Positions 12,788 through 60,378 of a DNA stretch of 64,000 nt are shown piece after piece. This stretch comes from Candidatus Micrarchaeota archaeon. Lineage in GTDB: Archaea; B1Sed10-29; B47-G15. The position numbers and the translations under genes were made by a program. Where the stretch lies: assembly GCA_003660975.1 (NCBI GenBank), contig QMVG01000004.1:1-64000 (forward strand), written 5' to 3'. A model generated the notes under the pieces. That model was not told the DNA's origin. It did not search any database and saw nothing but the letters and a program-made list of their open reading frames with translations. Position 1 is the stretch's first letter. Each line of letters starts with the position of its first letter.

Positions 12788-13063
12788 GTGGTGAGTACGT
12801 CTTGGGGTGGCAGTGCCTGCAAATCCCCCAGCTACCCAGAACCTCACTCAGTCCTGCAACCCCACAAGCACCCAACCCGCTTGTTATGGCTGCTCCGTTC
12901 CCGGCCTGACCAGGTTCCAAACGGGCCGAGTCCTGCGGGACAAGACGTCAGCGCTTGGTCCTGGACTGGAGGACGGCAAGCACCACGCCCCCAAGACTTC
13001 GACCCCCCCGTAAGCGGATTTGGGGTTACAGGAGACCGCTGACCTCCCGGCCTAACTCACCAC
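12788..13063 (-). ncRNA. ffs: Archaeal SRP (7S) RNA
   Basis: Helix-8 motif CAGGCCGGGAACGGAGCAG, Alu-domain TGTAA, paired termini GTGGTGAG/CTCACCAC, GC-rich, ~276 nt. Confidence 0.93.
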
Positions 13064-45658: not shown

Positions 45659-46231
45659 GTGTCTGTGGGCAGGGTTCTAGAGCTGGGAATCTTTGCAATA
45701 GTTGTGGTGGTGGTTGCGCTCTTCACTTCATTTGTATTTATAACCATGCCTGAGAAAAATGTCAGCAGCTCTGGCAGGACTCTTTACATGTCTCCATATA
45801 AGTACAGCATAAATTACCCAAAGCGCTGGCAAGTGGTAAACAAATCCCTTGCTAATTTGACAGGAGGAGAAATAGAACTGCTTCTGGCCCCAAAAAACAG
45901 CTCCAATATCTTTCTCTGCCTGTTCAGGCCAAAAGCAGCAAACGGCGTTAAAGCAGTTGAATACCTGATGGGCTTCGAGAAGGAGAGATATAAGGCAGAC
46001 CCCTTTTTTACTGCAATGATATACAAGAGCCTTTTCTCTGAAGACGAGGAAGCTGAGGAGATGTTCTACAAGACATATTCCACTGCTTTATCAACAGACA
46101 TATATCACAAAAAGGTGGTGATAATAAAAAATGATACGCTTTATGAAATGGAATATTTTGCCCCTTCTGACAAGTATAGGTTATTTGAGACGGATGCCGA
46201 TTCTATCTTCACCTCCTTTAAAAAGGAATAA
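45659..46231 (+). CDS. Membrane-anchored PsbP-like protein
   Basis: N-terminal TM, YSINYPKRW, C-terminal ADSIFTSFK pattern. Confidence 0.65.
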   Translation: MSVGRVLELGIFAIVVVVVALFTSFVFITMPEKNVSSSGRTLYMSPYKYSINYPKRWQVVNKSLANLTGGEIELLLAPKNSSNIFLCLFRPKAANGVKAVEYLMGFEKERYKADPFFTAMIYKSLFSEDEEAEEMFYKTYSTALSTDIYHKKVVIIKNDTLYEMEYFAPSDKYRLFETDADSIFTSFKKE

Positions 46232-46312
46232 GCTTTTCACTAAATAGTGTAAGATATCGCAAAAAAGCGACAATCATTAAATTTTTATAAGAGCTTGCAC
46301 AGAAGTATTAAC

Positions 46313-46443
46313 GCGGAGGATGGCGGCGCGTCCAGCGTCAACCATCGTGCCTAGCGCACCACGGGTTCCCGGTAGTAGCTCGCCTTGTGCAGCGAAGCGG
46401 GATAAGAATTTCTCCGAGAAGGAGAAATCACCCGTGCTCGCCC
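46313..46443 (+). ncRNA. Unassigned structured ncRNA, ~130 nt
   Basis: GC-rich intergenic island with six helices, TTTATAA box ~25-29 nt upstream and a T-tract right after. Confidence 0.7.
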
Positions 46444-46479
46444 TTTCTTTTTTGTTTTTGTTGCTCTGTCTTAGGCCTT

Positions 46480-48162
46480 TCACTTGTTTCTTGCTTGAAG
46501 GCAGGCTTTCACGAAAGCATCAAAAATAGGGCTTGGTTTTAAAGGCCTGCTCGTGAACTCTGGATGAAATTGAGTTGCTAAGAAAAAGGGATGGTCAGTC
46601 CTTTCCAAAATTTGCATAATCCTTTTTCCAGGAGCATAACCTGAGAATATTAATCCTTTTTCCTGCAGCCTATCTACAAAGTCAGGATTGCATTCGTACC
46701 TATGCCTAAACCTTTCCCTCACCTTTTCCTTTTTGTATATCTCGTATGCTTTTGTCCCTTTTTCTATTATCACATCTTGACCGCCCAGCCTCATAGTTCC
46801 TCCTGCGTCTTTTATTCTCTTTTGCTCAGGCAATAAGTCAATGACAGGAAACTCTGTATAAGGATCTACTTCTGTTGTATGCGCTGATTTCATTCCTAAT
46901 AAATGCCTTGCATGTTCTATGACTGCCATTTGAAAGCCATAACATAGGCCCAAAAATGGGATTTTCTTCTCTCTCGCGTGCTTCACTGCCTCTATCTTTC
47001 CCTCAACGCCTCTTGAGCCAAATCCACCAGGCACTATCAAACCATCTACGCCTTCTAACTGTTTTTCAACCCCCTCAACCTGCGTTGTCTCAATCCACTT
47101 AAGCCTAACCTTGCAGTTATTCTTGGCAGATGCATGGCTTAGCGCTTCTATTATGCTTGCGTATGAATCATGGAGCTGCGTGTATTTCCCTGCCATGCCA
47201 ACTGTTACTTCTTTACCTGCATTTACTATTTTGCTGACAAAGTTACGCCACGCTTCTAGGTCTATTTTTTTCGTTTTTAATCCAAAGTGCTGCAACACTA
47301 TTTCATCAACATTTTGGCTTTTTAGGTTCAAGACCAATTCATATATTGTCTTCACATTGTGCGCATCTATCACGTTTTTCAGAGGCACATTGGCTGCAAT
47401 GCTTATTTTCTGCTTGACCTTTTCCTCTATTATGTCCTCTGCCCTGCACACTATTATATTTGGCCTCAATCCCATCCCCATAAGCGTCCTTATGCCCAGC
47501 TGCGCTGCTTTGCTTTTCTGCTCCCCCAGGGTTGAGGGTTTCATGATATAAACCAGTGCAACTACCATTATGTTTTCCATGCCTTCCTCGTACTGCATTT
47601 GCCTTATAGCTTCTATAAAGTAAGAGTTTTCAATGTCTCCTATTGTTCCACCAACCTCAACCATCACTATGTCAGCATCTGTTTTCATGCCCAAGTCCCT
47701 AAGCAGGTATTTTATTTCACCTGTCACGTGCGGTATGAACTGGACATCTCTTCCAAGGTACTCCCCTTTTCTCTCTTTTTCCAATATCTTCTTGAACAGC
47801 TTTCCAGCTGTCAGGTAATTTATTGAAGACAGGTTTTCGTCCAGGAATCTCTCATAAGTTCCTAAGTCCATATCGCACTCTGTTCCGTCATCAAGGACAA
47901 AAACCTCCCCGTGCCTGAAAGGATTCAGCGTTCCTGCGTCTACATTCAAATAGCCGTCAAACTTTATGGGGCTCACCTTGAAGCCGTTCTCTTTCAGCAA
48001 TCTCGCGAGAGCAGCCATAGCTACGCCCTTGCCAAGACCAGAGATAACAGTGCCAACAAAGACGATGTATTTTATCTTGCCTGGCTTGTAGCCTTTTGGG
48101 GCAGAGGTAAAAAACTCGCCACCAGACCTGTTTGCAAACATGTCAAAATAGTTTCTGCTCAC
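46480..48162 (-). CDS. pyrG: CTP synthase
   Basis: GTVISGLGKG, HGEVFVLDDG, GLCYGFQ, QFHPEF; likely GTG start at 48162 after GGTGG. Confidence 0.97.
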   Translation of the reverse strand: MSRNYFDMFANRSGGEFFTSAPKGYKPGKIKYIVFVGTVISGLGKGVAMAALARLLKENGFKVSPIKFDGYLNVDAGTLNPFRHGEVFVLDDGTECDMDLGTYERFLDENLSSINYLTAGKLFKKILEKERKGEYLGRDVQFIPHVTGEIKYLLRDLGMKTDADIVMVEVGGTIGDIENSYFIEAIRQMQYEEGMENIMVVALVYIMKPSTLGEQKSKAAQLGIRTLMGMGLRPNIIVCRAEDIIEEKVKQKISIAANVPLKNVIDAHNVKTIYELVLNLKSQNVDEIVLQHFGLKTKKIDLEAWRNFVSKIVNAGKEVTVGMAGKYTQLHDSYASIIEALSHASAKNNCKVRLKWIETTQVEGVEKQLEGVDGLIVPGGFGSRGVEGKIEAVKHAREKKIPFLGLCYGFQMAVIEHARHLLGMKSAHTTEVDPYTEFPVIDLLPEQKRIKDAGGTMRLGGQDVIIEKGTKAYEIYKKEKVRERFRHRYECNPDFVDRLQEKGLIFSGYAPGKRIMQILERTDHPFFLATQFHPEFTSRPLKPSPIFDAFVKACLQARNK

Positions 48163-48252
48163 CTTACCACCCTGCCTGACGCAGTAATAAAGAGCTTTCA
48201 TTTTAATAAAGCTTACTACAAGCTTTAATATCTTGAAAATACTAATAATAGC

Positions 48253-48963
48253 ATGGCAAATCTGCTCGATTTTTTTGAAGACTATGAAAGGAAATACAGG
48301 GACAAAGGCATGAAGGACTTTCACAAGTTGAAGGCAGTTTATGACAAGAGCAGTGAAAAAAAAGATTACTCTGAGATGGAGTTTCAGCTTCACTGCATCA
48401 TGAAGTTCTGCGAGGCCTTTAAGCCAAAGGCCATGCAGGTAAGCATAGAGGAGAGCTATATCCTACCAAAGGAGCTTGAGTTTAACCCAACACTTTCTTG
48501 GCCAAACATAGAGATGAAGGACTATCTGGGAAGAGAGTATAGTATATGGTACAAGCCAAGGATATACGCCCCTTCACAGGACGGCGTAAGGGAGCTGCTG
48601 CCTGATTTTATAGTTATGAGAGGCCATTACGACTCTCCTTACAAGCTGGACCCTGCTTTTCTTGACAAGATAAAGAAAGAGCCTTTTCTAAACAAGGTTT
48701 TGCTGAGGGAGTTCAGCCTTGGCCTTCTGGCAAGGCTGAGGCCTGTCCAGTTCCTAATAATTGCCAGGAGGAAGATTATGAAGTCATACATAAACGAGAT
48801 AAAGCATATGCAGTTTTACCTGAAGCCGAGCAAGACACTTGTTATATCGCAGTCCACACTGGACAATGAGATAAAGCTAAACCTTCCTGTTGGGGCTCAG
48901 TTCATAGAGAATGTTGATATAAATCTTTCAAAGGTTTCAGATGAAATAAAAAAGATGATTTAG
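48253..48963 (+). CDS. Hypothetical protein (possible degenerate PD-(D/E)xK fold)
   Basis: 236-aa ORF with LLPDFIVM motif. Confidence 0.6.
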   Translation: MANLLDFFEDYERKYRDKGMKDFHKLKAVYDKSSEKKDYSEMEFQLHCIMKFCEAFKPKAMQVSIEESYILPKELEFNPTLSWPNIEMKDYLGREYSIWYKPRIYAPSQDGVRELLPDFIVMRGHYDSPYKLDPAFLDKIKKEPFLNKVLLREFSLGLLARLRPVQFLIIARRKIMKSYINEIKHMQFYLKPSKTLVISQSTLDNEIKLNLPVGAQFIENVDINLSKVSDEIKKMI

Positions 48964-49705: not shown

Positions 49706-50839
49706 TTAGTCAGACCACGTTGAGCCCTCTAGGTACGCTCTAGTGCTGTCGTTTGTTGATGGGTAATGCCTTTGCAGCGTGAAGAGCACCGAGCCTTTTT
49801 TCTCCACGATTTCCTTCACAGTTACTCTTGCTCCCAGGTGGTTTAGGTGCTCTACAAAAGCCTCTCCAAAAGCCCTGTCAGGCACCACTATCTCAAATTC
49901 CTCAACAGCTTCCTTTCCATTGTCAATATCCCTTATTGTCTCTATAATTGGCTTCAATATGCTTCTTCCAAGCTCTGAGGATGCTTTTTCAATGTCTAAT
50001 TCTCTTTCATAGCACTGAAAAGCTTCTCTTATAAGCCTTCTGAAAAAGAAGGCCTGCCCGTAGTCCGACCAGAATTTAAATGCATATCTTAAATCATTGT
50101 TGGTGCTTTTATTGCCAGTGTATTTCAGCACAGTTTTCATGTCCAGGGACTTTATAACAATGCCTTCCCTGCTTTCCTGCTCCAGCTTTTCAATAATTTT
50201 CATCACCTTTTCGCTATCATCTGCTGAAAATTCCCCCAATTCCCTAACAGAAGGCAGGTGATATTCGCTTAGGAGCTTTCTCTTTTCCTCTATAGTCAAT
50301 GGCAAAGCGTCTCTTTTTCTCCTTATGTCAAAAACATAATAACCAAAATCTTTTGATTCAGGATATCCTTTCTCCTGGTAGGGGTTCCTGAGACCTATAA
50401 CCTCACCGCACAACATCAGTTCTTCATGCTCATCAAAAAAGCTGTTGCTTCCAATAATCTTTTCTATTCTATATGTGGTGTATGGGCATACTATGCCTCC
50501 TCTTGTTACTGCCACTAAATTGCCCCAGACCTTGGCAACCCTGACGTTATAGCCGTCTAGCTTCTCCTCAACTACAAAGCGTGAGCTTAGATTTTTCTTA
50601 ATGCCTTGCTTCAGCATGAGTATTCTTTTTATCTTCGGGTAGCCAGCCATTAATTCCGTTTGATCTCCTTTCAGGAAAACAACGGTTCCCTTCTCAAAGC
50701 CCAGCTCTTTGTGCCTAAACCTGTAATAGGGATAAAGAAAACTGCCAACCTTGTGAATGCTGTCTTTATCAACAGCTTTTTTGAATGCTTCCTTTTTGAC
50801 GCCCAGGGCCCTTGCAACTAGCGATAGCTCTTCTTCCAT
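49706..50839 (-). CDS. ATP-dependent RNA ligase (archaeal Rnl3/Pab1020 family)
   Basis: Motif I EEKLDGYNVR, TRGGIVCPYTT, LCGEV, REGIVIK. Confidence 0.92.
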   Translation of the reverse strand: MEEELSLVARALGVKKEAFKKAVDKDSIHKVGSFLYPYYRFRHKELGFEKGTVVFLKGDQTELMAGYPKIKRILMLKQGIKKNLSSRFVVEEKLDGYNVRVAKVWGNLVAVTRGGIVCPYTTYRIEKIIGSNSFFDEHEELMLCGEVIGLRNPYQEKGYPESKDFGYYVFDIRRKRDALPLTIEEKRKLLSEYHLPSVRELGEFSADDSEKVMKIIEKLEQESREGIVIKSLDMKTVLKYTGNKSTNNDLRYAFKFWSDYGQAFFFRRLIREAFQCYERELDIEKASSELGRSILKPIIETIRDIDNGKEAVEEFEIVVPDRAFGEAFVEHLNHLGARVTVKEIVEKKGSVLFTLQRHYPSTNDSTRAYLEGSTWSD

Positions 50840-50988
50840 CTTTTACCTCCCCTAGATGCACATAAACTGCACAGCCCTGTTTTGCTGTCGTAATGCTCAG
50901 CGCAAACCCTTGCTCCACAGCGCCAGCAAGTATATAAAGTTAGAGATGGCTTATTACATATACTGCAAATGCCCACAAGGCCATCCAT
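50818..50988 (-). CDS. Small Zn-finger protein
   Basis: CSIC...CWRCGARVCAEH...CSLC. Confidence 0.8.
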   Translation of the reverse strand: MDGLVGICSICNKPSLTLYTCWRCGARVCAEHYDSKTGLCSLCASRGGKRWKKSYR

Positions 50989-51004
50989 GGTGTTATTAGT
51001 GTCC

Positions 51005-52054
51005 ATGTCCTATAAAATATTGAGCATAAAGGGAATAGATATAGAGCTGCACCTGTTTTTCATAATATTCATTTTGAGCCTTCTTATCTTAGACCCACTT
51101 ACATCCTTTTTTCTGATAATTATTTTCGTTTTTGTTGCTTTGCATGAGTTAAGCCACTCTTTAGTTGCCATGAGAAATGGGATAAAGGTTAAGAAAATAG
51201 TTCTCCTGCCCATAGGCGGAGTTGCCATGATAGACAATGTGGAGATGAAGCCCCTTTCTGAAATAAAGATGGCATTGGCAGGGCCGCTCTTTAATTTTCT
51301 GGTTGTTTATCTGCTCTTATTCCTTGCCTATATCTTCCAGCTGCCTCTTGTTGAGTGGATAAAAGCTTTTTCATCAGGAAACATTTCCCTGCTCCAGATG
51401 TTATATGTCTATGTTTTGTATGCTAACCTAATACTTGGCGCTTTTAACCTCTTTGTGCCTGCATTTCCCCTTGATGGCGGGAGGATACTAAGGGCAGTTT
51501 TGGCATTGAAAATGGATTACTTGAAGGCCACTGATTACGCGAGAAAGATAAGCCTTATAATAGCTGCTATAATGTTTGTTCTGGCCTTCCACTTTGGAGA
51601 CCTTTGGATAATGATAATAACCTTTTTCATAGCTCTTGGTGCAGTCGGAGAGTATGAGGCAACGCTTATTCAGCACTCCTTGAAAAGCAGGAAAGTTTCA
51701 GAGCTGCTGACTAGTGATTTTATCTTGTTGAAAGCGTCAGACCCTGTAGCCACTGCTCTTTATTACATGATAATGAGAGACAAGAAGAGCTGCCTTGTCA
51801 GGTATTACAACAGGTTTTTTGTGCTTGAGATAAAGGATGTGCTTAGGGTTCCAAGAAGCAGGTGGCTCTCAACAGCTGTTGTGAACGTGGCAAAGCCTGC
51901 ATTTATTTTGTACGAAAAAAGCAGTTTTGAGGAGTCATTGAGGCATTTCAAGAAAACAGGGCTCTCTATGTTGCCTGTTCTTAGGGATGATGGAAGCTTG
52001 TCTGCACTTTATTTTAGTGACTTACAGTCGTCTCTGGAGAAGGTGAAGGGATGA
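51005..52054 (+). CDS. Site-2 protease (M50) with degenerate CBS domains
   Basis: LHELSH, LAGPLFN, PAFPLDGGRILR. Confidence 0.9.
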   Translation: MSYKILSIKGIDIELHLFFIIFILSLLILDPLTSFFLIIIFVFVALHELSHSLVAMRNGIKVKKIVLLPIGGVAMIDNVEMKPLSEIKMALAGPLFNFLVVYLLLFLAYIFQLPLVEWIKAFSSGNISLLQMLYVYVLYANLILGAFNLFVPAFPLDGGRILRAVLALKMDYLKATDYARKISLIIAAIMFVLAFHFGDLWIMIITFFIALGAVGEYEATLIQHSLKSRKVSELLTSDFILLKASDPVATALYYMIMRDKKSCLVRYYNRFFVLEIKDVLRVPRSRWLSTAVVNVAKPAFILYEKSSFEESLRHFKKTGLSMLPVLRDDGSLSALYFSDLQSSLEKVKG

Positions 52055-52452
52055 GCTCAAAATTCAGCTTTGAATATGCACCAGATGTTCAGGTCTTGGT
52101 TGAAAGGCTGATAAGGGTTTTGGAGCTTGACTACATAAAAAAGGAAAATGTTATTTGCATGAGGTCTTATGGAAGCACAGCAAATGCCTATGCGAGGATA
52201 TGGGAGCTGCCCTCTATATGGCAAAAGGCCCTCAACATAGAGCCTCATTACGTCATAGAGGTCTTGTCTCAGCACTACGACAAGCTGCCACAGGAGGAAA
52301 AAGAAAAAACTTTAATACACGAACTGCTTCATATTCCGAAAAGCTTCAGCGGTGCTACTGTCCCCCACAAGAACTTTGACAGGCGGATAGACGCGAGGAC
52401 TGTTAACAGGCTTTACAAGAGATACAAGGAGAGGTTGATGGATTATGGATGA
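52051..52452 (+). CDS. Putative metallopeptidase
   Basis: AYARIW, LIHELLHIP. Confidence 0.8.
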   Translation: MSSKFSFEYAPDVQVLVERLIRVLELDYIKKENVICMRSYGSTANAYARIWELPSIWQKALNIEPHYVIEVLSQHYDKLPQEEKEKTLIHELLHIPKSFSGATVPHKNFDRRIDARTVNRLYKRYKERLMDYG

Positions 52453-52954
52453 TTTCTGGGATGAGGATGAGGAGTTCCTGCAGCGCAGCGATGGAAAATA
52501 TAGAAAACTGGTTAGCTGTATTGTTTACTGGGGCAATGCAGAGCAGTTTCTCTTGCTTCACAGGAAACTCAGGTGGCATGGTTATGAGTTTCCAAAAGGG
52601 GGGATAAAGAAAGGAGAGAGTTTGGAGGAAGCAGCCAGAAGAGAGCTGAGAGAGGAAGCAGGCATAGAAGACATAATTTCAATAAAAGACACGGGGATTG
52701 AGATTAAATACAAGTGGCCTCCTGAAATCGTGAAGCACCCAGGCAATAAGAACAAATACGATGGTGCAATACAACACTTTATGCTGGTAAAAGTTCCGTA
52801 CAAAAAAGCAGAGGTAAAGAGCGATGAGCACGATGGCCTTCTCTGGGCAAGAGCAAATGTTGTGGATGAGTACCTTGCTTTTGAAAACCTGAGACAGGCC
52901 TTTAGAAAAGCATTAAAAATGATAGCAGAGGTAAAAGATAATAGGCCCCAGTAG
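52445..52954 (+). CDS. NUDIX hydrolase
   Basis: Nudix box GGIKKGESLEEAARRELREEAG. Confidence 0.9.
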   Translation: MDDFWDEDEEFLQRSDGKYRKLVSCIVYWGNAEQFLLLHRKLRWHGYEFPKGGIKKGESLEEAARRELREEAGIEDIISIKDTGIEIKYKWPPEIVKHPGNKNKYDGAIQHFMLVKVPYKKAEVKSDEHDGLLWARANVVDEYLAFENLRQAFRKALKMIAEVKDNRPQ

Positions 52955-53059
52955 CTCAATGGCAGAGCGCTCGCCTCGTAGGCCTTTCAATGATGACTGC
53001 TAAAAAGCGCTGAGAGCCGAGAAAGCGAGAGGTTGAGGGTTCAAATCCCTCCTGGGGCT
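52945..53059 (+). tRNA. tRNA-Thr(CGT) with 43-nt intron (52981-53023)
   Basis: GCCCCAG/CTGGGGC acceptor, CTCGC/GCGAG stem, BHB with CTCG/CGAG central helix. Confidence 0.93.
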
Positions 53060-56377: not shown

Positions 56378-56461
56378 GCAGGGGTGCCGGAGTGGCCAAA
56401 CGGGATGGACTCAAGATCCATTGGCTTAGTGCCTTCGAGGGTTCGAATCCCTCCCCCTGCA
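56378..56461 (+). tRNA. tRNA-Leu(CAA)
   Basis: GCAGGGG/CCCCTGC acceptor, TGGA-CT-CAA-GA-TCCA arm, long variable arm. Confidence 0.96.
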
Positions 56462-56747
56462 CTAGGGACCGAAGGTCCCTATTGGGGGCTTCAGTTTCGC
56501 TTAAGCCTTTAACATCGGAATAACAGGAAAGGCTTAAATCCCTCCCCCTGCACTAAGCTTTTTCCTATGAAAACTGTGGAAAAAGCTTAAGCAAAAAAGA
56601 GGGGGAGGGAAGTTTTGATGAAACTTTTGCTAAAAGTTTCAATCCCTCCCCCTGCATTGCAACGCAGCTCGTTGCATCCGCAGGCGATCTTCGATCGCCT
56701 TTGCTTAAGCCTTTGACACAGAAAGGATAGGAAAGGCTTAAATCCCT
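56446..56747 (+). repeat. Tandem array of tRNA-Leu 3'-end copies separated by hairpin cassettes
   Basis: AATCCCTCCCCCTGCA at 56446, 56537 and 56641; truncated AATCCCT at 56741; inverted core GGGGGAGGGA at 56601. Confidence 0.88.
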
Positions 56748-59237: not shown

Positions 59238-60336
59238 ATTGCAGAACCCAAAGTAATAGGTCAAGGAATGCAACTGACTAAACAAAGTTTCGCTAAACTA
59301 GAAGAACAGGCCAATTGCAGAACCCAAAGTAATAGGTCAAGGAATGCAACTCAATATCAGACGCTTTATTCACTCTAGGAGCTACCCTTATTGCAGAACC
59401 CAAAGTAATAGGTCAAGGAATGCAACATTATATTTATTGTTATGTTATCATATCTCCCAAACAAAAGTATTGCAGAACCCAAAGTAATAGGTCAAGGAAT
59501 GCAACTAGGTGTTGTTAAGCGACACGGTTAGAAGGTAATCTTGATTATTGCAGAACCCAAAGTAATAGGTCAAGGAATGCAACTCGGCCTTTTTCCAGCC
59601 AAGGGCTTTTACTATTGCCCTATTGCAGAACCCAAAGTAATAGGTCAAGGAATGCAACCAAGCGAAAAGTATTTATATAACATAGGTTTGTTTCATTGCA
59701 GAACCCAAAGTAATAGGTCAAGGAATGCAACTATTCTTCCAAATTCAACACCTCCAAAATATTTATAATTGCAGAACCCAAAGTAATAGGTCAAGGAATG
59801 CAACTTGACAGCCAAGCTAGAAAGTTGTTAAACAGCTTTAATTGCAGAACCCAAAGTAATAGGTCAAGGAATGCAACTATGTTAAAATCGCTATCGGGCG
59901 TGGAAGGGGGTAGCGAATTGCAGAACCCAAAGTAATAGGTCAAGGAATGCAACCATAGTATCCCTGCGTTTGCTCTGCAACCGCAGGTTGTCTATTGCAG
60001 AACCCAAAGTAATAGGTCAAGGAATGCAACTCTGGATATCTGGTCCCTCCACGAAACCATCACCATCATTGCAGAACCCAAAGTAATAGGTCAAGGAATG
60101 CAACCACCTTTTGGTATAGCCCAGAAGCATCAAAAACATGTGAAAAATTGCAGAACCCAAAGTAATAGGTCAAGGAATGCAACTCTTTTTAGCTTTTCTC
60201 GGCAGTTTATACCACATATCCTTATTGCAGAACCCAAAGTAATAGGTCAAGGAATGCAACGGTAATGTCAGCCCATCTGACGCAACGGCATTTGAGACAA
60301 TTGCAGAACCCAAAGTAATAGGTCAAGGAATGCATG
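59238..60336 (+). CRISPR. CRISPR array: 15 repeats of 37 nt, 14 spacers of 36-42 nt
   Basis: Repeat ATTGCAGAACCCAAAGTAATAGGTCAAGGAATGCAAC; last copy ends TG instead of AC, so the leader is probably on the tracrRNA side. Confidence 0.99.
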
Positions 60337-60378
60337 AGAACCACATAATTTTTAAATTGCAGGTACTTATCATTTTTT

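Follow-up and report, generated by a model that had tools for sequence, protein, structure and literature searches.

A candidate small structured RNA gene with a three-way-junction core in a DPANN order labelled Micrarchaeota

The window analysed here, a stretch of 64,000 nucleotides from a Micrarchaeota archaeon (genome G000), contains an element that very probably specifies a separately transcribed small folded RNA. Homologues of its 3' part are present in two other genomes of the same order (G002 and G007), and we consider it highly likely that the element is a genuine conserved RNA gene. Judging from searches of catalogued RNAs, it very probably represents a new RNA family, found in no Rfam entry. 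The complete explanation that we prefer goes further, namely that this is an uncatalogued stable-RNA gene whose product would act in trans and whose junction is a putative protein-binding platform; we hold it to be about evenly balanced between right and wrong.

The predicted gene and its signals

The predicted RNA gene of ~130 nt occupies positions 46313-46442 on the plus strand and has a G+C content of 0.62, compared with 0.435 for the genome. Windowed G+C is 0.60 at 46320-46439 and 0.33-0.46 in the flanks; such high G+C is as for stable RNAs. The neighbouring genes, a PsbP_2-like ORF (45659-46231, plus strand) and CTP synthase (46480-48393, minus strand), converge on the element, and both base composition and gene calls agree with an earlier note, made from the sequence, that had described a GC-rich island between two convergent genes. 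Neither repeats nor an integrase were found beside the element within the flanking region examined. The longest ORF of the CTP synthase gene encodes 637 aa from a GTG start, with the Pfam domain beginning at residue 108; probably the true start lies further downstream or the protein carries an N-terminal extension. The parts of the predicted gene, as read from the minimum-free-energy (MFE) fold and from an alignment of the three homologous cores (A3), are the following.

46282-46290 (+): TATA box TTTTTATAA, ending 22 nt before 46313
46313-46442 (+): predicted RNA gene of ~130 nt, from the MFE fold, without Rfam match
46313-46318 (+): 5' strand of the closing stem, GCG(G)AG/CUCGC, paired with 46437-46441 in the MFE fold of this genome only
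46319-46346 (+): hairpin 1, GAUGG.GGCGC/GCGUC..CCAUC, with one G.U pair, in the MFE fold; no counterpart in G002 or G007
46347-46359 (+): hairpin 2, GUGC-CUAGC-GCAC, in the MFE fold; abuts P1 on its 5' side
46360-46366 (+): 5' strand of P1, CACGGGU, paired with 46430-46436; conserved in all three genomes
46367-46402 (+): P2 arm, made up of P2a (UCCC/GGGA), a 5' bulge, a distal stem and a loop with CCUYG
46403-46407 (+): junction strand J2/3, UAAGA; invariant columns in alignment A3
46408-46428 (+): P3 hairpin, AUUUCUCC-GAGAA-GGAGAAAU; a hairpin in all three genomes, with differing sequences
46429 (+): junction strand J3/1, one invariant C in alignment A3
46430-46441 (+): 3' strand of P1, ACCCGUG, followed by the 3' strand of the closing stem, CUCGC (MFE fold, alignment A3)
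46444-46459 (+): oligo-T tract TTTCTTTTTTGTTTTT, a likely archaeal terminator; similar tracts occur at tRNA and 5S genes

The MFE fold of 46313-46443 on the plus strand has a free energy of -54.2 kcal/mol (z -2.65 relative to 200 dinucleotide shuffles with a mean of -44.7 and a standard deviation of 3.6, of which 3 fold as well), and the minus strand yields z -1.83, with 10 of 200 shuffles equally good. Taken alone, this z-score is only moderate; it is the homologues and the promoter spacing, not the z-score, that set the element beyond chance. All helices listed by eye in the earlier note are present in the sequence and in this fold. Its four-way and three-way junctions both form there as well, but only the three-way junction is conserved, the four-way junction of closing stem, hairpins 1 and 2 and P1 being found in this genome only and lacking comparative support.

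The distance from the end of the TATA box to the 5' end of the RNA is 22 nt, and the corresponding distances for the SRP, 5S and RNase P RNA genes of the same genome are 21, 22 and 25 nt, respectively. This match in spacing with known stable-RNA genes is indirect but specific evidence for a putative transcript starting near 46313. The T-tract at 46444-46459 has parallels after the tRNA-Ile, tRNA-Ser and 5S genes of this genome. An independent archaeal stable-RNA gene is recognised by a TATA box ~20-26 nt upstream together with a 3' oligo-T, and both are present here, in line with the promoter and terminator that had been proposed from the sequence. TATA boxes are also located upstream of the G002 and G007 copies, spaced like those of their own SRP RNA genes. 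Moreover, five G.U cells of the alignment would become A.C on the opposite strand, which points to the plus strand as the functional one and bears out the same preference, drawn earlier from a single G-U pair. On these predicted signals, the strand is set by promoter, terminator and wobble pairs.

Conserved core and distribution

Only the 3' ~75 nt are common to the three sequences, and they form a three-way junction; the flanks of this core are mostly unalignable among the three genomes. Alignment A3 (n=3) has 37 invariant columns and a mean column identity of 75%, with invariant blocks GGGUUYCCGG, GCGGRRUAAGAA and YCACCCG. P1 consists of GGGU/ACCC plus two variable pairs and runs directly into P2a (UYCC/GGRR). 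Invariant nucleotides cluster at the junction, in the P2 bulge and in the P2 loop, whereas P3 and the 5' extension vary.

The helices are kept by compensatory change, with the limited support that three sequences can give. Standard pairs fill 91.2% of the cells, a share that falls to 35-44% if the partners are shifted by 1-3 columns, and five pairs are double-changed, for instance A-U to G-C in P1, C-G to U-A in P2a and U-A to G-C in P3. Covarying homologues, which the earlier note had made a test of its proposal, exist in two genomes, G002 and G007. P1 is paired in 100% of cells and includes one double-changed pair (A-U, G-C and G.U in the three sequences); P2a, with the C-G to U-A change, is likewise 100% paired. 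The 5' bulge of P2 is 6-7 nt long and opens with an invariant GG, and the P2 loop measures 12-15 nt. P3 ranges from 21 to 30 nt across the genomes with completely different sequence, and 3 of its 5 basal pairs are double-changed. The structure score was reached by 4 of 500 shuffles, a significance that is overstated because there are three sequences only and their genomes are related. The gaps between the homologues span 2, 7 and 9 columns, which argues against a coding sequence. For the distal part of P2, two incompatible pairing models were obtained, GYYU/ARGC and, from RNAalifold, CCUUGY/RCAAGG. The consensus fold is the MFE fold in G000 and G002; in G007 it has -14.4 kcal/mol compared with -19.6 for the MFE fold and is thus 5.2 kcal/mol worse, and the stability of the G007 core is like that of shuffles (z -0.2).

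Outside the core, the 5' extensions judged from the TATA boxes are ~42 nt in G002 and ~24 nt in G007. A short hairpin-like stretch in G002, located at the same position as hairpin 2, may correspond to it. The junction is closed by a short helix across an internal loop in G002, and by GAGCA/UGCUC across a 3-nt bulge in G007. These two genomes share a 22-nt module, AU.UAAA..CC.UUCGGGCAAC, which immediately precedes the 5' end of the core in G002 (L040 1479-1500) and is found 6 nt past the 3' end of the core in G007 (L043 1471-1492, minus strand). The two modules are identical at 18 of 22 positions, with an alignment score reached by 3 of 5000 shuffles, uncorrected for 12 comparisons; the module is unique in each of the two genomes and absent from G000.

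The homologues were not evident from sequence similarity: BLASTN of the element against 61 genomes gave only short chance matches (best non-self match 18 nt, E 0.015). A covariance model built from the single sequence (R1) recovered G002 weakly, at 21.7 bits and over the three-way-junction part only, and misaligned G007. A strict pattern made from the shared blocks picked out three of the 401 archaeal genomes searched, namely G000, G002 and G007, and its reversed control picked out none. With a second covariance model (R2), built from the three cores, these sequences scored 76.9-88.3 bits and were the only 3 of 151 relatives at E<=0.05; in the 31 genomes of the phylum, R2 found no other convincing match. 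Weak R2 matches in G004, G010, G023 and G029 (E 0.7-4.9) look coding and are without the fold, and a relaxed pattern yielded 2 extra matches in the 31 genomes, both without P1, compared with 3 for the reversed control.

Searches of wider collections with the pattern returned five stretches in species-representative genomes (two archaeal, carrying the G002 and G007 core sequences, and three bacterial false positives), five in metagenome contigs (one true and identical to G007, four false) and two in viral contigs, both false positives. Phage and plasmid records contained no match to the element, and four DNA sequencing runs gave identical low-depth fragments together with conserved pyrG pieces of other organisms and no variants. 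A stretch in G002 (contig C80, L063 132-159) resembles the P2 arm, with an R2 score of 18.8 bits and a genome-wide E of 0.2; it is G+C-rich, overlaps long ORFs and has a fold z of -0.16, and the resemblance is probably due to chance.

Each carrier comes from a different family of a single order; together they make up 3 of its 18 genomes, with one copy apiece, and 8 of the 15 genomes without a copy are at least 90% complete. As far as searched, the family appears restricted to one clade of a DPANN order labelled Micrarchaeota.

Known RNA classes and other features of the genome

At gathering scores, an Rfam search of the 64-kb window (4227 families, earlier orphan motifs included) recovered an SRP RNA and seven tRNAs and nothing at 46313-46443. 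At E<=10 over 46200-46560, four sub-threshold matches were obtained, none credible and none on the plus strand over the element, and the homologues had no match at E<=0.1. The earlier note had recommended this check, and its outcome, with no significant match to any family, divergent 5S rRNA included, upholds the part of the proposal that spoke of a class without a name; the other part, independent transcription, is supported by the promoter and terminator signals, that is, indirectly. In the titles and abstract openings of the literature on noncoding or structured RNA in DPANN or Micrarchaeota, no such RNA is described.

The major classes of archaeal RNA were considered in turn. For 5S rRNA, RF00001 gave no match at E<=10 (at least 38 bits would be expected), and the element is not a divergent 5S, because the true gene sits elsewhere: the sole 5S match in this genome is at G000:C3:84938-85054 (75.8 bits; the 5S of G007 scores 67.5 bits). 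A tRNA, intron-bearing forms included, was rejected with no RF00005 or ARAGORN match and no T-loop GTTCRA motif. RNase P RNA and SRP RNA, which had been set aside from the start, are indeed encoded elsewhere in the genome, the former on another contig (RF00373, 162 bits) and the latter in another part of the window (RF01857, 163.2 bits); neither model matches the element. The motif scan also agrees with the reported absence of a T-loop, the 5S CCGAAC loop and C/D and ACA boxes: the C box RUGAUGA and D box CUGA of C/D box sRNAs occur in none of the three sequences, and none has the ACA of an H/ACA sRNA 3' of the fold, the sole ACA being in the 5' leader of G002. The hammerhead and other catalogued self-cleaving ribozymes were dismissed, with CUGANGA missing from all three sequences and no Rfam ribozyme match at E<=10. 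Inspection of P2 by eye for a K-turn or loop-E motif was negative, as the required G.A positions are not conserved in A3. Finally, the longest complement to the 37-nt CRISPR repeat of the window is 6 nt in each of the three sequences, and with no anti-repeat the element is not a tracrRNA.

Several features of the genome came to light in the same searches. The SRP RNA (12789-13062, minus strand) is 274 nt long, and 40 positions of the Rfam model before helix 8, the helix-6 region, are occupied by no bases; a search for SRP19 (PF01922) in the genome, which is 89.7% complete, gave no match. Equally short SRP RNAs of 266-274 nt are encoded by five other genomes of the order. We considered whether the element could supply SRP helix 6 in trans and rejected this, since G001, G005 and G006 have SRP RNAs just as short and are all without the element. 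Three tRNA genes of 103-115 nt (52945-53059 on the plus strand, 837-940 and 578-680 on the minus strand) were found by Rfam and missed by ARAGORN, and in the gene at 52945 an insertion of 45 nt, which is presumably an intron, interrupts the anticodon-loop region. Between 56437 and 56756 there are four direct copies, 91-104 nt apart, of a 25-nt sequence that matches the 3' end of tRNA-Leu (56378-56462) exactly or closely; situated just upstream of the Cas12f2/CRISPR region, they look like repeated integration scars. In the CRISPR array itself (59238-60372), a 37-nt repeat (ATTGCAGAACCC...GCAAC) occurs 15 times, and its final copy has a degenerate end. Two contig ends (G000:C5:73100-73962 and G000:C3:116603-117234) each carry part of the 16S rRNA gene, and since these overlap by 42 identical bases, the split reflects an assembly break rather than a fragmented gene.

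Possible roles and comparison with known systems

The explanation that we prefer is a single-copy gene that encodes a small stable RNA and has a TATA promoter of its own, with transcription stopping at the oligo-T tract. The functional part would be the 3' ~75-nt three-way junction, in which P1 is continuous with P2, UAAGA (5 nt) links P2 to P3, and a single C links P3 back to P1. That the RNA may act in trans as a folded molecule is suggested by the stable-RNA promoter, the high G+C, the single copy, the invariant junction and the variable peripheral helices. The junction could then be a specific binding platform, with a protein as the most likely partner, and the molecule would be the RNA part of a small RNP.

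No protein partner stood out in the genomic context. In each carrier the RNA has, within 1-6 kb, the genes for a Pab1020-type RNA ligase, an M50-CBS peptidase and a small metallopeptidase; in the window they occupy 49706-52452, with the ligase gene on the minus strand divergent from the M50-CBS peptidase gene and a gene of the 'phage metallopeptidase' family on the plus strand. A specific tie of the RNA to the ligase was rejected, as 16 of the order's 18 genomes encode the ligase, non-carriers included; the metallopeptidase is present in 11 of the 18, and of the 11 loci with the syntenic spot after its gene, only that of G007 has the RNA. Because the cluster is general to the order and also occurs without the RNA, the linkage is probably a matter of inherited gene order rather than of function. 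The immediate neighbours of the RNA differ among the three genomes, no relatives of the PsbP-like neighbour were found that could anchor synteny, and none of the neighbours in the three carriers is specifically linked to the RNA.

Among the alternatives, the one that survives best, though it is unlikely, is a base-pairing regulatory sRNA in which the P2 loop (CCUYGYG) or UAAGAA would pair with mRNAs and the rest would serve as a scaffold. An sRNA of this kind would fit an element that stands alone between promoter and terminator signals of its own, and conserved single-stranded stretches are indeed available in the P2 loop and J2/3; yet these stretches are just 5-7 nt long, most invariant bases lie in or beside helices, and a compact fold with so high a G+C speaks more for a structural RNA.

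Slightly less probable again is a small catalytic RNA, self-cleaving or self-processing, with the junction as its active site and P3 and the 5' domain as scaffold. Small ribozymes occur in permuted forms, which the 22-nt module, 5' in G002 and 3' in G007, recalls; the junction strands are invariant where the stems vary freely, and the genomic context differs between genomes. However, no Rfam ribozyme family was matched at E<=10, the hammerhead core is absent from all three sequences, and there is one copy per genome behind a promoter of the stable-RNA type. A broader version, in which the element defines a new class of small processed RNA, either a self-cleaving ribozyme or a circularised or permuted RNA, strikes us as improbable. 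Under it, the shift of the 22-nt module would reflect permuted gene forms of one mature RNA, and the Pab1020-type ligase encoded within 1-6 kb, from a family with circularising activity, could be the joining enzyme.

It is more doubtful still that the element is not a functional RNA, whether it be a stretch conserved as DNA, what is left of a mobile element or a spacer that is G+C-rich by chance. Its patchy occurrence in 3 of 18 genomes of the order, its differing position between genomes and the just moderate z-score of the fold would fit this, but the compensatory changes and strand-specific G.U pairs indicate selection on RNA structure, promoter and terminator signals accompany a single copy per genome, and neither a phage or plasmid match (the two viral-contig matches being false) nor flanking repeats or an integrase in the region examined tie it to a mobile element.

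Two further readings have hardly any probability, and equally little. In the first, the element would be a cis-acting leader, riboswitch-like or a ribosomal-protein operator, for a downstream gene. The conserved junction is aptamer-like, and in G002, where the T-tract is weak, a 138-aa ORF starts ~30 nt past the element on the same strand; here, by contrast, a strong T-tract is followed by a convergent gene, and in G007 a gap of ~157 nt with two TATA-like repeats separates the element from the next gene. The downstream ORFs are mutually unrelated, and no Pfam family was found for them. A leader should lie in the 5' UTR, on the same strand, in most instances, and only G002 is compatible with this arrangement.

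In the second, the RNA would mimic the GTPase-associated centre of 23S rRNA (H42-H44) and act as a decoy that titrates the stalk-base proteins uL11 and uL10; the corresponding segment of the genome's own 23S has a closing helix GCGGG.../...GCUCACCCGC, two hairpin arms and an A-rich strand UUAAAGA, and the strings GCGGG and AGCUCACCCGC are common to it and the G002 element, but R2 gives the segment 5.7 bits in a different alignment, the local alignment score was reached by 1215 of 2000 shuffles, Rfam yielded no LSU match at E<=10, the loops of the rRNA arms have no counterpart in the element, and P3 is not conserved. A BLAST comparison with the 16S and 23S of this genome found words of 7-9 nt only, and similarity to H42-H44 in sequence and structure did not reach significance.

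Returning to the folded, trans-acting stable RNA, DPANN genomes are tiny and keep little beyond essentials. Since such genomes keep little and the RNA fits none of 4227 families, a conserved, separately promoted and uncatalogued RNA hints at an RNP or RNA activity new to archaea. The value of the finding is limited by three sequences from uncultivated organisms, and many orphan RNA motifs of this kind are unexplained; at the same time, a conserved core of ~75 nt with clear invariant positions is easy to probe, to test for cleavage and to use as bait.

Several known systems invite comparison. The tracrRNA of the window's Cas12f2 locus would, like the element, be structured, ~130 nt long and encoded in the same window, but the element lies 12.5 kb from the array and has no anti-repeat. 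With 5S rRNA (RF00001), it shares its size, a three-way junction closed by a helix and the 22-nt TATA spacing, whereas its junction strands and loops differ. The 23S GTPase-associated centre is alike in having a three-way junction, in the sequence of the closing helix and in an A-rich joining strand of 5-7 nt, but its arms are unlike those of the element, and the similarity is not above chance. In bacteria, Y-like RNAs are encoded beside RNA-repair ligase genes, and the element too is a small structured RNA gene near an RNA ligase gene, in three of three genomes. A Ro/Y-RNA system was nevertheless rejected: none of the three carrier genomes encodes a TROVE/Ro protein, and the ligase, unlike in the Y-like RNA systems, is of the Pab1020 type and also occurs in genomes without the RNA. 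The last comparison is with orphan structured noncoding RNA genes, which have been recognised as G+C-rich intergenic islands in A+T-richer archaea and bacteria. The element lies outside all 4227 Rfam families and in three genomes only; as in these genes, it forms a G+C-rich intergenic island and a multi-helix fold, and it shares with them the lack of an assigned function, the presence of its own promoter and terminator signals, and compensatory changes in its helices.
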